Below, in pieces: positions 1-4,217 of a stretch of 4,830 bases of DNA (positions are counted from its first letter, which is position 1; every line of letters begins with the position of its first letter). The translations under genes were made by a program, and so were the position numbers. This DNA comes from a virus (lineage: Duplodnaviria; Heunggongvirae; Uroviricota; Caudoviricetes): the IMG/VR virus record IMGVR_UViG_2563366878_000014, one strand, 5' to 3'. The notes under the pieces are model-generated. The model worked only from the letters and a program-made list of their open reading frames with translations. It made no database searches and was not told where the DNA came from.

Positions 1-1287
1 GATTCACTGGATATGATTACGGGCTTTTCGCCGTCATATAAAAAAATTGTTATTGGTGATGATGAAATAACGATGCCTGGCGACAAGGTTGTTAAGTTTA
101 AACGCGCATCAACTGCCACATATATCAATAAATCAGGCGTATTTAGTGTTGCTAAAATTGATGAGCCACGATTTGAAAAAGAAGGTTTATTGATTGAAGG
201 ACAGCGCACTAACTATTTTGTTAAATCCAATACTCCCGCTGAATGGACGAGTACCAGCAATATCGATAAAACTAATAATGGTGTTGATGAATTTGGTTTT
301 TCATATGCCAAAATGCGAACAAAAGATAATATGACAGGACAATCATCTGCACTTAGTCTGCATACATGCAGTGCATCCCGGGGGATTGATGTTAGTGGCG
401 ATAATAAGTATTGCACTGTTTCATGCAGGGTTAAAGCTCCTGATGGTCTTCGTTGTCGTTTGCGTTTTGAAAAATACGATGGGTCGGTTTATACATTTTT
501 AGGAGATGCTTATTTAACTTTCGGAACTCTGATAATAGAAAAAACTGGCGGAGCAGCCAATAGAATAGCAGCTACTGCAACTAAAGATCCGGTTACAGGG
601 TGGATTTTCTATGAGGCAACTATAGAAGCTGTTGAAGGTGAAACCTTAATTGGCGCAATGATTCAGTATGCGCCGAAAAAAGGTGGTATAACTGAAGCGG
701 GAGATTATATTTACCTTGCAACACCACAATTTGAAAACGGCGGATGTGCTTCATCTTTTGTTATTACGACAACTGCACCCGCAACCCGCTCCAGTGATAT
801 GGTGACGATCCCAACTGAAAATAATATCTATAATAGACCGCTTACGTGTCTTGTCGAGGTTAATAGAAATTGGGGCGATATTCCTCCTAATGTAGCACCG
901 CGTATTTTTGATTTTTCTGGTGTGCCACCTATTGAGTCAATTACATACGCTTTTAACACAACTGAGAAATATTACGGTCAGCTTTATATGCAAACTTATA
1001 AAGCGTCGACAAGTACTTACGTTTCTAGTGTGTTTGCTGGTCGAACTGATGTTCGAAAATTCATTGGTGGTTTTAATATTTATTCTGATGGTACTAAACG
1101 AGTAGTTTCTAACGGTGAGGCTACTAAAACTATGAAAACGGAGTGGACGGGCGTAAAAACACGGACCTTTATTCGAATTGGAGGTCAAGCCACATCGGGA
1201 ACTCGTCATCTATTCGGCCATTTGAGAAATCTTCGTCTCTGGCATAAAGAATTAACTGATGCGCAAATGGGGGAGAGTATTAAATGA
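1..1287 (+). CDS. Tail fibre / receptor-binding protein, C-terminal part (5'-partial; frame open from base 1, 428 codons in window). C-terminus looks like a lectin-type jelly-roll (LamG/ConA-like) domain.
   Basis: Frame 1 has no stop from base 1 to TGA at 1285-1287. The first ATG at 13 has no room for an RBS, so the gene most likely starts upstream of the window. C-terminal motif ...GTRHLFGHLRNLRLWHKELTDAQM matches my recollection of the typical end of LamG-like jelly-roll domains in phage fibre tips. N-terminal window segment RASTATYINKSG...DEPRF...GLLIEGQRTNY resembles the start of a second such domain (weaker). Genomic context is tail fibre (Tfa remnant and Pin recombinase downstream). Confidence 0.75.
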   Translation, partial: DSLDMITGFSPSYKKIVIGDDEITMPGDKVVKFKRASTATYINKSGVFSVAKIDEPRFEKEGLLIEGQRTNYFVKSNTPAEWTSTSNIDKTNNGVDEFGFSYAKMRTKDNMTGQSSALSLHTCSASRGIDVSGDNKYCTVSCRVKAPDGLRCRLRFEKYDGSVYTFLGDAYLTFGTLIIEKTGGAANRIAATATKDPVTGWIFYEATIEAVEGETLIGAMIQYAPKKGGITEAGDYIYLATPQFENGGCASSFVITTTAPATRSSDMVTIPTENNIYNRPLTCLVEVNRNWGDIPPNVAPRIFDFSGVPPIESITYAFNTTEKYYGQLYMQTYKASTSTYVSSVFAGRTDVRKFIGGFNIYSDGTKRVVSNGEATKTMKTEWTGVKTRTFIRIGGQATSGTRHLFGHLRNLRLWHKELTDAQMGESIK

Positions 1288-1673
1288 AAGATTTAACACT
1301 CAAATTTGCAGACAGGGTCGACTTTTCGGCCTTTATGGAGAGCATTGGCTATTATGATGACGAGTCGATGCAGGATGATATTCTTATTGACGTGATAGGT
1401 AATGTGTACAAAGAAACCGGAGAACTTACTGAAGATGGCGAGCCGGTATGTGTTAAGGAGGACGGATATTTTGTAAATGTGCGCATCATTAATGATTCGC
1501 AAATATCGTCATTATTCGATGAACACGCGGTTGCTGTTGAGCATCAACTCCGTAGCTGGATGTGAGGAAGAAAAATGGCTACATCGACAGTAATTCCTGA
1601 TGACATCAAAACGCTAAAGGGAGATGTCAGTAAGGCAAAGGAAGATATTTCCTCAATTAACGTAAAAGTATCA
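858..1673. repeat. Tandem duplication unit 1 (816 bp), identical to 1674-2489.
   Basis: Checked line by line against 1674-2489 and found no mismatch. Identical ORF pairs in the supplied track are offset by exactly 816 bp (908/1724, 937/1753, 1284/2100). Confidence 0.95.
1284..1565 (+). CDS. Hypothetical acidic 93-aa protein, translationally coupled to the fibre gene; candidate fibre accessory/chaperone (copy 1).
   Basis: ATG at 1284 overlaps the fibre stop (ATGA). SD-like GGGGGAGAG lies 7-8 nt upstream. The protein is D/E-rich. No family recognised from memory. Confidence 0.65.
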   Translation: MKDLTLKFADRVDFSAFMESIGYYDDESMQDDILIDVIGNVYKETGELTEDGEPVCVKEDGYFVNVRIINDSQISSLFDEHAVAVEHQLRSWM

Positions 1674-1679
1674 GGTTAA
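1575..1679 (+). pseudogene. Truncated N-terminal fragment (34 codons) of the 234-aa gene, created by the duplication junction.
   Basis: Same RBS (GAGGAAG) and ATG as the 2391 gene. Reads MATSTVIPDDIKTLKGDVSKAKEDISSINVKVS, then the junction adds G and TAA at 1677-1679. Confidence 0.7.
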
Positions 1680-2103
1680 TAGAAATTGGGGCGATATTCC
1701 TCCTAATGTAGCACCGCGTATTTTTGATTTTTCTGGTGTGCCACCTATTGAGTCAATTACATACGCTTTTAACACAACTGAGAAATATTACGGTCAGCTT
1801 TATATGCAAACTTATAAAGCGTCGACAAGTACTTACGTTTCTAGTGTGTTTGCTGGTCGAACTGATGTTCGAAAATTCATTGGTGGTTTTAATATTTATT
1901 CTGATGGTACTAAACGAGTAGTTTCTAACGGTGAGGCTACTAAAACTATGAAAACGGAGTGGACGGGCGTAAAAACACGGACCTTTATTCGAATTGGAGG
2001 TCAAGCCACATCGGGAACTCGTCATCTATTCGGCCATTTGAGAAATCTTCGTCTCTGGCATAAAGAATTAACTGATGCGCAAATGGGGGAGAGTATTAAA
2101 TGA
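1674..2103 (+). pseudogene. Duplicated 3' fragment of the fibre gene (last ~143 codons, including the lectin-like C-terminus) with no proper start or RBS.
   Basis: Identical to 858-1287. The frame opens only after TAA at 1663-1665. There is no ATG with an SD; the ORF track start at 1738 is an internal GTG. Confidence 0.7.
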
Positions 2104-2381
2104 AAGATTTAACACTCAAATTTGCAGACAGGGTCGACTTTTCGGCCTTTATGGAGAGCATTGGCTATTATGATGACGAGTCGATGCAGGATGATATTCT
2201 TATTGACGTGATAGGTAATGTGTACAAAGAAACCGGAGAACTTACTGAAGATGGCGAGCCGGTATGTGTTAAGGAGGACGGATATTTTGTAAATGTGCGC
2301 ATCATTAATGATTCGCAAATATCGTCATTATTCGATGAACACGCGGTTGCTGTTGAGCATCAACTCCGTAGCTGGATGTGA
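2100..2381 (+). CDS. Hypothetical acidic 93-aa protein (copy 2, identical to 1284-1565).
   Basis: Identical sequence with the same RBS, carried inside the duplicated fibre fragment. It could be expressed by read-through transcription. Confidence 0.6.
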   Translation: MKDLTLKFADRVDFSAFMESIGYYDDESMQDDILIDVIGNVYKETGELTEDGEPVCVKEDGYFVNVRIINDSQISSLFDEHAVAVEHQLRSWM

Positions 2382-2390
2382 GGAAGAAAA

Positions 2391-3095
2391 ATGGCTACAT
2401 CGACAGTAATTCCTGATGACATCAAAACGCTAAAGGGAGATGTCAGTAAGGCAAAGGAAGATATTTCCTCAATTAACGTAAAAGTATCAACGCTTCAGAC
2501 TGATATGGACAGTGCAAAGCAGGATATCAGTACCAGATACACAAAAACAGAAGTGGATAATAAGCTGAAAAACAAAGTGGAAGTGAACGATCTGGAAAGT
2601 GGTCGTTATGGCGGAGATTTTTACCCGCTGACTGGCCGTGAAGCGTTTTATTTATGGGGATTGGGCACAACTACAGCGGCGGCAAATCTTTATCTTAATC
2701 CTGACCCTGCAATTTCGTCTGTGCTGCGGTCAACATCGTCTATCCGCTATAAACATTCAGTAGAGACGATAGATTCAGAGCACGCCGATCTCATTTTCAG
2801 GATGCGCCCTGTGTGGTACAGGTCGCAATGCGAAAATGACAGGCGTGACTGGGGATTCTATGGATTGATTGCCGAGGAAGTAGGAGAAATTGCCCCTCAG
2901 TTTGTTCACTGGCGACCAGCCAACGAAGATGATGCACCGGAAACCATTTCCAGCAATGGCCTTGTTGCCGAAGGTGTAATGTACGAACGTCTGGTTGTTC
3001 CACTGATTCACCATATCCAGAAACTGACTGAAAGAGTTGATGAACTTGAGTCAGAATTGAAGTTGTTATCAACTTCCCAAAGCGATATCGGATAA
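2391..3095 (+). CDS. 234-aa fibre-like protein: N-terminal coiled-coil-like region plus C-terminal domain resembling the phage intramolecular chaperone (Peptidase S74-like) domain.
   Basis: Strong RBS GAGGAAG 5 nt before the ATG. C-terminal motifs LIFRMRPVWYR, GLIAEEVGEIAPQFV and VMYERLVVPLIHHIQKLTERVDELESEL match my recollection of the S74 chaperone-domain consensus (LRPVxY / GxIAQEV..P / Y..LVPLL..IKEL). Confidence 0.8.
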   Translation: MATSTVIPDDIKTLKGDVSKAKEDISSINVKVSTLQTDMDSAKQDISTRYTKTEVDNKLKNKVEVNDLESGRYGGDFYPLTGREAFYLWGLGTTTAAANLYLNPDPAISSVLRSTSSIRYKHSVETIDSEHADLIFRMRPVWYRSQCENDRRDWGFYGLIAEEVGEIAPQFVHWRPANEDDAPETISSNGLVAEGVMYERLVVPLIHHIQKLTERVDELESELKLLSTSQSDIG

Positions 3096-3105
3096 AGGAG
3101 GAGTA

Positions 3106-3399
3106 ATGGATATAACACCTTTTCTTCATGCGCTTTGTGCTGTGGCTGCGCAGGTAATGATTGGTCTTTTTACCGGAAACTGGGTTTACGGGGCGATAGC
3201 CGGTTGTACGTTCTTCATTGCGCGTGAACACACCCAGGCAGAATATCGCTGGATTGAAATGTTCGGGCATGGCAAGCGGATTAACATGCCGTGGTGGGGC
3301 GGTTTTGATCCGCGTGTTTGGGATGTGGCAAGCCTGATAGATTTTGCTGTGCCGGTGGTGGCGTGTCTGCTGGTCTGGCTGTTGGTTAATCGTGGGTGA
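3106..3399 (+). CDS. 97-aa small predicted inner-membrane protein (2-3 hydrophobic helices), hypothetical; possible moron.
   Basis: Strong RBS AAGGAGG 4-5 nt before the ATG. Hydrophobic stretches FLHALCAVAAQVMIGLFTG, WVYGAIAGCTFFIA and VASLIDFAVPVVACLLVWLLV. Spot-checked lines are GC-richer than the upstream genes. Confidence 0.7.
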   Translation: MDITPFLHALCAVAAQVMIGLFTGNWVYGAIAGCTFFIAREHTQAEYRWIEMFGHGKRINMPWWGGFDPRVWDVASLIDFAVPVVACLLVWLLVNRG

Positions 3400-3409
3400 A
3401 AAAAGGTGA

Positions 3410-3529
3410 GCTGTATATGCAACGGAGGAAGAAACCCCGTTGCTGGAAGCCTGGAAAAAGTATCGGGTGTTGCTGAACCGTGTTGATACGTCAACTGCAC
3501 AGGATATTGAATGGCCAGCACTGCCGTAG
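3410..3529 (+). pseudogene. tfa: 3' remnant of a tail fibre assembly (Tfa-family) gene: conserved C-terminal 39 codons only.
   Basis: Frame 2 reads [39 protein letters not shown] then TAG, the C-terminal signature I recall for lambda Tfa / Mu U / P2 G-type proteins. An in-frame TGA at 3407-3409 sits immediately upstream and there is no start or RBS. Confidence 0.75.
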
Positions 3530-3605
3530 GGTAAAACATATAAATTCTATAATTAGATGTATCTTTCCATTTACGGCAAGGAAGGGGGCTTGGAAGACGT
3601 AAAGC

Positions 3606-3628
3606 ATCTCACACCGAGATTATTTTTT
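3606..3628 (+). terminator. Weak candidate intrinsic terminator for the + strand gene string (5-bp stem ATCTC/GAGAT, then TATTTTTT).
   Basis: Hairpin 3606-3620 followed by a T-run at 3621-3628. The stem is short and AT-rich, and the site overlaps the recombinase stop on the other strand. Confidence 0.25.
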
Positions 3629-4217
3629 ATATGTCAGGTGTCTGAAGTTTTGCTTTGGCTCTTAAAATGGTTTGCCGCGAGGTTTTGAATTCCCGGGCAA
3701 TGGCACTTATACTTACACCTGACTTAATTCGTTCGAATACCACCTGTTTCTGTTCTTCATTTAACACAGGTGGTCGACCAAAACGTTTCCCTGCGCCCCG
3801 GGCTCTTACTATCCCGGAATGAGTGCGTTCAAGTAAAAGGTCTCGTTCAAATTCAGCGACTGCTGAAATTACTTGCATCATCATTTTTCCTGTTGGACTG
3901 GTCAGGTCAATGCCCCCCAATGCTAAGCAATGCACTCTGATACCTGTTTCGGTCAGTTGTTCCACTGTTTTCCTGATATCCATTGCATTACAACCAAGGC
4001 GATCCAGTTTTGTCACAATCAATTGATCACCACATTTCAGGCGAGCAAGCAACCGGTTAAAACCAGGACGCTCACTGGTTGCTGCTGAGCCGCTAATGTG
4101 TTCTTCGATTATTTGCTGAGGTTTGATTTTAAAACCTGCACTTTCGATTTCCCGGCGTTGATTTTCGGTGGTCTGATCCAGAGTTGATATCCGACAGTAA
4201 GCAAAAATTCGAGACAT
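3627..4217 (-). CDS. pinR: Small serine recombinase, DNA invertase/resolvase family (Pin-like), 196 aa.
   Basis: N-terminal YCRISTLDQ with the catalytic Ser, central LDRLGCN...[16 protein letters not shown], and C-terminal GRPP plus helix-turn-helix are hallmarks of the Hin/Gin/Pin and resolvase family. Length and sequence match my recollection of E. coli prophage PinR/PinQ; I cannot tell those two apart without a search. Convergent with the tail-fibre genes. Confidence 0.93.

Follow-up and report, generated by a model that had tools for sequence, protein, structure and literature searches.

Exact 816-nt tandem duplication in a prophage tail-fibre locus is probably a local misassembly in one draft Escherichia coli scaffold

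Enterobacterial tandem duplications with short junctions, as reported in the literature of Roth and Andersson, arise without RecA and are lost by homologous recombination. Such duplications are arranged head-to-tail, consist of identical copies, join unrelated sequences and involve no mobile element. The invertible segments of Mu (G/Gin), P1 (C/Cin) and e14 (P/Pin), in turn, place a Pin-family invertase beside tail-fibre or tail-fibre-assembly sequence. False duplications in draft assemblies comprise exact copies beside gaps and misplaced copies, are missing from finished genomes, and typically adjoin gaps or wrongly filled gaps; in most of them a gap separates the copies, and in a minority wrongly filled sequence connects them (Ko et al. 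2022, PMC9516828).

The window analysed here, a stretch of 4,830 nt corresponding to bases 4407851-4412680 of draft scaffold KB732535.1 (GCA_000351185.1, a 2013 draft of a Broad "KTE" E. coli isolate), shares features with each of these systems. It contains a head-to-tail duplication of the enterobacterial short-junction kind; unlike those duplications, its unit is small (0.8 kb), its microhomology is at the lower limit and it is known from one draft sequence. As in Mu, P1 and e14, a Pin-family invertase lies next to tail-fibre and assembly sequence, whereas here the fibre genes lie on one strand, the assembly gene is a stump, no crossover sites were found and the rearrangement is a direct duplication rather than an inversion. 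As in false duplications, exact copies near gaps are accompanied by a misplaced copy and are missing from finished genomes, whereas here the two copies abut without any N. Weighing the evidence set out below, we propose local misassembly, confined to one draft scaffold, as the most likely origin of the duplication, which would then be no feature of the chromosome.

Self-comparison of the window at period 816 reveals a single unbroken run of 817 matching positions, in which 857-1673 equals 1673-2489. The repeat consists of two exact head-to-tail copies of 816 nt and one shared base, the A present at positions 857, 1673 and 2489 (Table 1). The 816-nt spacing was also returned by a separate repeat search, which detected no further repeats longer than 20 nt in the window. 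The longest exact match at any other period in the self-comparison is just 12 nt, which excludes chance as the origin of the 816-nt repeat. Tandem Repeats Finder gave no report for the window because only periods up to its maximum of 500 were covered. An earlier sequence-only reading of this DNA had described an exact 816-bp duplication at 858-2489 with its boundary at 1673/1674 and at most 1 bp of microhomology; these positions represent one valid phasing of the 817-position run, and the single shared A agrees with the microhomology given. The junction joins fibre sequence directly to sequence of the downstream 234-aa gene, and the two breakpoints are unrelated, with a 1-nt overlap. The junction can also be written as ...GTAAAAGTATCA/GGTTAATAG... 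and ...AACGTAAAAGTATCA/GGTTAATAGAAATTGG....

Table 1. Features of the window, with coordinates counted from its first base.
Feature	Position	Strand	Basis or remark
3' part (428 codons) of lambdoid side-tail-fibre gene	1..1287	+	PHROG 1419 'tail protein', E = 1e-197
Copy 1 of 816-nt unit	858..1673	+	Exact period-816 match; ORFs
93-aa gene, copy 1	1284..1565	+	ORF; PHROG 1361 (function not assigned)
Truncated 34-codon copy of 234-aa gene start	1575..1679	+	Stop created just past junction
Novel junction ...GTAAAAGTATCA/GGTTAATAGAAATTGG..., one shared A	1660..1690		Absent from genomes and contig collections searched
Copy 2 of 816-nt unit	1674..2489	+	Identical to copy 1; single in finished genome F344
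Start-less second copy of fibre end (142 codons)	1675..2103	+	ORFs
93-aa gene, copy 2	2100..2381	+	ORF
Intact 234-aa gene	2391..3095	+	Pfam PF13884, 27.3 bits vs cut-off 22; PHROG 3299 and 454
Stretch carried twice by source scaffold, exactly, out of order	2811..3434	+	Second 624-nt copy 634 nt upstream of window position 1, behind 10-N gap
97-aa gene	3106..3399	+	ORF; PHROG 1443 (function not assigned)
Tail-fibre-assembly gene remnant, N-terminus missing	3419..3529	+	RefSeq annotation of identical F344 locus
Pin-type serine DNA invertase, 196 aa	3627..4217	-	Resolvase and HTH_7 domains; annotated pinQ in related genomes
ydfK, 77 aa; window ends at ydfK start codon	4597..4830	-	ORF; F344 annotation

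A lambdoid prophage inserted beside prfC has its receptor-binding end here, with genes in the order side tail fibre, 93-aa gene, 234-aa S74 fibre-like protein, 97-aa gene, assembly remnant, Pin-type invertase and ydfK. The 5' end of the side-tail-fibre gene is cut off by a scaffold gap; the full gene encodes 799 aa in the finished genome F344. The 234-aa protein starts with a coiled coil, has a Peptidase_S74 (endosialidase-chaperone) domain and is similar to the C-terminal part of long tail fibres. Copy 1 of the unit includes the 143 final codons of the fibre gene, spans the whole 93-aa gene and ends 33 codons into the 234-aa gene. In line with the earlier reading, the open reading frames show a doubled 93-aa gene, a truncated start of the 234-aa gene and a start-less copy of the fibre end. 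Specifically, the 34-codon ORF reads MATST...VKVSG followed by two stops, running into the junction before it terminates, whereas the second fibre end has no start at its 5' end, lies in a different frame from that ORF and includes an internal GTG ORF at 1738-2103. Every full-length gene is still intact despite the repeat. The fibre tip had been called lectin-like, a description whose sole basis is a Laminin_G_3 match at residues 356-418 that falls below threshold in the domain search (19 bits against a cut-off of 27.6). The AlphaFold model of the 424-aa fibre part is poor, with a mean pLDDT of 59 and confident prediction only at residues 72-243. The idea of a duplicated tip cassette is weak: the left breakpoint of the unit falls inside codon E282, within an invariant protein block that includes P276, E282, N286, W287 and P292, and not at a module boundary.

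The unit is followed, 1.1 kb downstream, by the serine invertase gene, and the left breakpoint contains the motif CGAGGTT (855-861), broken at its centre, which we take to resemble the core of a Gin/Hin-type site. These features would suit a duplication generated by the adjacent invertase on cryptic sites, by an IS, or by a fibre-tip cassette or shufflon-like system, yet we regard any such programmed origin as very improbable. Invertases invert DNA and do not duplicate it. Their sites are imperfect dyads of ~26 bp that resemble each other, and a serine recombinase requires an identical 2-nt crossover core; the two breakpoints, however, are alike at just 11 of 40 bases in register, show dyad symmetry at 1-5 of 12 positions (background mode 3) and have a single base (A) in common. 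Neither an inverted or direct partner of the breakpoints nor a AAACCNNGGTTT-type core was found in 28 kb of the identical F344 locus. Because the breakpoints are without similarity or dyad symmetry and the invariant protein block is cut, we conclude that the neighbouring Pin-type invertase did not make the junction. The left breakpoint is, moreover, not a mosaic boundary in 278 complete-genome records. The junction contains neither IS sequence nor IS ends. In a Logan contig from an unrelated sample, the sequence joins an IS1 end at 852/853, 4 nt from the breakpoint; this end represents an unrelated insertion elsewhere, the window has no IS, and IS1 was rejected as the cause. Shufflons and DGRs entail several non-identical cassettes or a template/variable pair, whereas the two copies here are 100% identical and not diversified. 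The earlier description of the event as illegitimate rather than site-specific therefore holds if the event is real.

Position 857 at first sight resembles a recurrent branch point, with 3 contigs starting at 857-859. Control look-ups explain this apparent hot spot: four codons upstream and seven codons downstream, they return 4 and 3 contig starts, respectively, so that the 3 starts equal background and position 857 was rejected as a branch point.

Outside this draft, the junction was not encountered. A 200-nt query spanning it finds no contiguous match in any of 5,426 complete E. coli genomes, and the 31-nt junction string is absent from three large collections of genome, viral and metagenome contigs. 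The whole locus is carried by 133 of the 5,426 genomes, in single copy in every case. The finished genome F344 has the unit once and differs by one SNP from the window after collapse of the repeat; one copy is likewise present in phage PhiR49_1 (99.5% identity) and in three other assemblies that share the identical 93-aa allele. The two breakpoints coincide with no repeat boundaries seen in other strains.

The source scaffold is disturbed around the window. A 10-N gap directly precedes window position 1, 857 nt upstream of the repeat; position 1 is itself a recurrent contig start (15 contigs). A 5,665-N gap lies just upstream of the window in the same scaffold, and a further gap, of 820 N and mis-sized by +161 nt, falls within an ISEc31 element. 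In addition, the 624-nt stretch that the scaffold carries twice (Table 1) is present in its misplaced copy with the window's own allele, A at 3172, whereas the DLP12-like second copies in four other assemblies have G at this position. The A at 3172 makes the misplaced piece look like an assembler-made false duplicate within 3.4 kb of the 816-nt repeat. The DLP12-like remnant of other strains has window positions 2741-3516 in common with this locus; as a candidate cause, it accounts for the troublesome 2811-3434 stretch but not for the 816-nt unit. The duplication thus resembles false assembly duplications both in lying next to gaps and redundant sequence of a draft and in its absence from finished genomes with the same locus. 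An artefact of assembly, the scenario named in the sequence-only reading as its own refutation, has become no less likely than a real event. The claim of a very recent event or an unstable amplification intermediate finds no independent support; the 10-N gap, the misplaced 624 nt, the 5.7 kb of N and the uniqueness of the junction to this draft were outside the view of that reading.

How the additional 816 nt might have been generated can be outlined as follows. Other prophages of the same genome contain parts of the locus, and it is here that short-read assemblies break; the assembler, presumably ALLPATHS-LG for the Broad KTE project, left the 5.7-kb and 10-N gaps and appears to have inserted the redundant, out-of-order 624-nt piece. 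We infer that the extra 816 nt stem from the same assembly trouble and that the junction is without genuine read support. As a candidate route, a gap-patching or path-choosing step may have accepted a loop, which could come from a chimeric read of a circularised long-insert library, as ligation in such a library joins the end of a unit to its start without microhomology. Random joining gives a blunt junction with 1 nt shared. From 180-bp and 3-5-kb Illumina libraries, it is impossible to read how many copies a tandem repeat has once it exceeds the read length (PMC4237348). On the other hand, the breakpoints lie off known repeat boundaries and contig starts are at background, so that the usual cause of misjoins is not demonstrated here. 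Furthermore, a de Bruijn-graph assembler normally cannot invent a junction contained in no read; some library molecules therefore probably carried this one, which argues against misassembly.

The latter point also bears on a genuine recent tandem duplication, private to this isolate and produced by RecA-independent illegitimate recombination in an already defective prophage, which we consider a real possibility, though not the favoured one. Such a duplication may have formed by end-joining or template switching at the single shared A; it would be selectively neutral and destined for loss by unequal homologous exchange between the 816-nt copies, and its copy number could be 2 or more. The junction is free of N characters and seamless within a contig, which in a k-mer-graph assembly implies reads containing it, while the other negative gap in the assembly is marked with 10 N. 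Exact copies are the expectation for a recent duplication, and head-to-tail copies with a single novel junction are its form. The unrelated breakpoints with their 1-nt overlap, carrying no IS or recombinase site, lie away from recurrent contig-break positions. Nothing selects against the duplication, all full-length genes being intact, and the prophage is already inactivated by ISEc31 in tail-assembly gene I, whose copy in the source draft is GenBank protein ELD28453.1. The size of the 5,665-N gap equals the F344 spacing of 4,839 nt plus 816 plus 10 nt, and so fits a duplicated locus to within 10 nt; this arithmetic favours a real duplication if read pairs gave the gap size directly, whereas a size taken from the assembled contig would make it neutral, and it was left unweighted.

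Several observations speak against a genuine event. In independent assemblies of relatives the duplication was not seen: it occurs in 0 of 5,426 complete genomes, with no finished clone-mate among them, and in none of the three contig collections. Within the same draft, a scaffold gap lies at a distance of 857 nt and a demonstrably redundant piece at 3.4 kb; only about a tenth of a draft genome is estimated to lie this near a gap. In the literature of Roth and Andersson, real microhomology-mediated duplications reportedly have 1 nt of microhomology only at the low end of the range. Finally, de Bruijn assembly (k=31) of reads from a true duplication should yield a contig of 817 nt that starts at 857. 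This contig was missing from an index of 153 billion genes, as was any contig of the source strain starting at 2460, and a look-up of the junction peptide returned nothing from this strain; these absences weigh little, as the strain's runs may be missing from the index.

Until reads confirm the copies, neither gene gain nor fibre-tip cassette evolution should be read from the extra 93-aa gene, the 34-codon stump and the silent fibre end of this record. Should the duplication be true, it would add one more case to a well-known class, the transient neutral tandem duplication, here in an IS-inactivated prophage; no new question or mechanism follows from it. With corresponding reserve, the locus may have been caught in a no-homology duplication within tail-fibre genes, a possible origin of start-less copies of the receptor-binding end beside an intact fibre gene, open to later reshuffling through homologous exchange. 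The ISEc31 insertion that cripples the prophage is not shared by any finished genome in the search for a clone-mate, while the draft of a sister isolate has the same ISEc31-disrupted tail gene (GenBank protein ELG76897.1).

At a period of 816, comparison of the window with itself reveals a single uninterrupted run of 817 matching positions (857-1673 against 1673-2489); the longest run at any other period is 12, and a repeat search recovers the same 816-nt spacing. This unbroken run indicates that the 816-nt unit occurs twice, head to tail and without mismatch, with one A common to both sides at the join, in line with the sequence-only reading, which had claimed an exact tandem duplication with no more than 1 bp of microhomology. 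Its predicted effects on genes are borne out as well, namely a doubled 93-aa gene, one truncated start of the 234-aa gene and a start-less copy of the fibre end. Specifically, the 93-aa ORF occurs twice, copy 1 of the start of the 234-aa gene encodes MATST...VKVSG before a stop just past the junction, and the second fibre-end copy lies in a different frame and lacks a start at its 5' end. Additionally, the 93-aa gene contains a 28-nt near-palindrome, ATGTGCGCATCATTAATGATTCGCAAAT, which is duplicated with it and has 10 of 12 dyad matches.

Coordinates of the duplication and neighbouring features (L015, source scaffold stretch around the window; L002-L004, compared contigs)
Feature	Window position	Duplicate in window	Position elsewhere
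816-nt unit (junction 1673/1674)	858-1673	1674-2489	
Fibre gene, 3' part	1-1287		
Start-less fibre-end copy		1675-2103	
T run, T5 in window, T6 in two contigs	904-908		L002 4604-4609; L003 3929-3934
93-aa ORF	1284-1565	2100-2381	
T against C in F344	1318	2134	
28-nt near-palindrome	1477-1504	2293-2320	
Codons common with 346-aa variant	1575-1618	2391-2434	
234-aa gene, intact copy	2391-3095		
Stretch also in ompT/nfrA prophage	2741-3516		
624-nt piece	2811-3434		L015 10001-10624
Assembly stump and Pin-type invertase	3419-4217		
IS1 end in Logan contig			L004 1-22
ISEc31 insertion			L015 270-1688

The native breakpoint sequences are identical at 11 of 40 bases in register and at 15 of 40 at best over shifts and inversions, the 12+2+12 dyad score around each breakpoint is 1-5 of 12 (background mode 3), and only one base is common at the join. 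Strand exchange by a serine invertase takes place at a 2-nt core identical in both sites. Within 28 kb of the identical locus in F344, a finished E. coli genome used as single-copy reference, neither a second copy of the left-breakpoint sequence nor a AAACCNNGGTTT-type core was found, and no IS sequence lies at the join. Taken together, the low identity, background-level dyads, one-base overlap and missing partner site and IS rule out a recombinase or mobile element as the maker of the junction, and anything programmed is hardly credible. The earlier description of the join as illegitimate rather than site-specific is therefore upheld, provided that the event is real, the breakpoints being dissimilar and devoid of dyads and of a 2-nt core. 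Its duplicated "tip cassette" is not: the left breakpoint cuts codon E282, which belongs to a block (P276, E282, N286, W287, P292, N293, A295, P296, R297 and D300) invariant across 22 homologues of 50-95% identity, and is therefore not a module boundary, nor is the second copy a clean cassette. Starts at exactly 857-859 occur in three unrelated contigs; control codons close by gave 4 and 3 such contigs, so 857 was rejected as a recurrent break point, and 232 of 278 matching complete-genome records run straight through it. In a Logan contig (ERR10033174), 22 nt of an IS1 end are joined at 852/853, 4 nt from the left breakpoint; this join comes from a separate IS1 insertion, in a different sample, and IS1 was rejected as the cause of the duplication.

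The window aligns to 4,014 nt (4,830 minus 816) in F344 and three other best hits. With one copy removed, it differs from F344 at a single position, where T in place of C changes residue 12 of the 93-aa protein from Ala to Val. Among 5,426 complete E. coli genomes, none contained a junction-centred 200-nt query contiguously (one or both halves occur in 698), and a 31-nt junction string was not found in one-genome-per-species contigs, IMG/VR viral contigs or JGI metagenome contigs. Comparison with related prophages, a check suggested by the sequence-only reading, returns a single copy in each: F344, the induced phage PhiR49_1 (window 1-3516 present once, 99.5% identity) and three other assemblies (L009, L010 and L012), which encode the identical Val-12 protein once each. 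No finished clone-mate of the source isolate was found; GenBank lists a sister isolate that shares the gene disrupted by ISEc31 (ELG76897.1).

The window is an exact substring of scaffold KB732535.1 (GCA_000351185.1), in which two 93-aa genes lie 816 nt apart. Within the 20-kb surroundings, the scaffold upstream of the window runs through the 5' part of tail gene I, two stretches of ISEc31 (93 nt, then 506 nt) with 820 N between them, 2.6 kb of J, a gap of 5,665 N, a 624-nt piece and 10 N, and the duplication sits 857 nt from the contig start. Because of the upstream gap, the "fibre ORF" of the sequence-only reading is fibre sequence but not a whole ORF, the gene being cut by the gap. The 624-nt piece repeats part of the window exactly, from the end of the 234-aa gene through the 97-aa gene into the first bases of the assembly stump, and is placed out of order upstream of the fibre. 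It carries A at 3172, the window's own allele, and therefore looks like a pure false duplicate; DLP12-like second copies in four other assemblies carry G. The assembler demonstrably made redundant sequence in the stretch that holds the duplication.

False duplications in assemblies typically flank gaps or wrongly filled gaps (PMC9516828). We propose that the duplication is probably a local misassembly, which would fit its position beside gaps and proven redundancy, a junction not found elsewhere and a blunt join with 1 nt in common. The Broad standard recipe combines 180-bp fragment and 3-5-kb long-insert Illumina libraries into ALLPATHS-LG drafts, and the source project presumably used it. 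With such libraries, the number of copies in a tandem repeat that exceeds the read length is not directly readable (PMC4237348). The ligation junction of a circularised long-insert fragment would have exactly the topology and bluntness of this join, and would be a plausible route into a patched contig. We give less credence, though still a substantial share, to a genuine strain-private duplication by illegitimate recombination: no break marks the junction, while the negative gap nearby was written as 10 N, graph assemblers normally make no junction absent from every read, and the breakpoints are not repeat boundaries. Were the duplication true, its reads assembled at k=31 should yield contigs starting at 857 (817 nt) and 2460; neither an 817-nt contig starting at 857 nor a contig of the source strain starting at 2460 was found, which favours an artefact. 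Adding 816 and 10 to the distance between J and the 624-nt piece in F344 (4,839) gives the length of the 5,665-N run, an arithmetic that we treat as neutral because the number could derive from the assembled contig itself; another gap in the scaffold is off by 161 nt. Misassembled or genuine, the finding is an ordinary one. If real, the duplication would be neutral, since all full-length genes survive and the prophage is probably defective owing to interruption of tail gene I by ISEc31. This IS3-family insertion, whose flanks overlap by 3 bp, creates a clone-specific 165-aa fusion protein in two GenBank assemblies (ELD28453.1 and ELG76897.1, named E. coli KTE213).

The locus is the right end of a lambdoid prophage, and at least 80% of the window length is matched in 133 complete E. 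coli genomes. Annotation of F344 (NZ_OY754421.1) places tail genes, J and lom first, followed by a "prophage tail fiber N-terminal domain-containing protein" of 799 aa, a hypothetical protein of 93 aa, a "tail fiber domain-containing protein" of 234 aa and a hypothetical protein of 97 aa; after these come a tail-fibre-assembly stump, a recombinase, ydfK, a gene of the YnaM/YnfT family, a dinI-like gene and chromosomal prfC. The fibre part matches PHROG 1419 "tail protein" (E = 1e-197) and Laminin_G_3 only below threshold (19 bits, cut-off 27.6), a Peptidase_S74 chaperone domain is present in the 234-aa protein (27.3 bits, cut-off 22), and family search identifies the 196-aa protein as a serine recombinase with Resolvase and HTH_7 domains. 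The Pin-type invertase is an orphan, separated from the fibre module only by a C-terminal tail-fibre-assembly stump; all fibre genes nearby lie on one strand, no crossover site was found at the locus, and the invertible segment seems to have been replaced.

Contigs of other assemblies repeatedly start at window position 1 (15 contigs in the collection), which is the boundary of a conserved fibre N-terminal part common to several prophages. Elsewhere, the ATG at 13 starts free-standing "phage head spike fiber domain" proteins of 416-424 aa (P0027, P0040, P0048 and P0111); from these two observations, the fibre is a conserved N-terminal part fused to this module. In two ENA metagenome contigs, a sixth T shifts the frame and leaves two fibre ORFs, of 674 aa and 121 aa; either a true pseudogene allele or a homopolymer error could account for it. 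Other strains also have the stretch from the end of the 234-aa gene through the 97-aa gene and the assembly stump in a degraded prophage by ompT/nfrA, joined directly to a tail-T chaperone gene (L013, L016 and L017), and this stretch is thus present a second time in those genomes. A 346-aa variant of the 234-aa gene in other strains (L019-L021) shares only the first ~15 codons and diverges thereafter, so the coiled-coil start appears to be a conserved adaptor whose distal parts can be exchanged.
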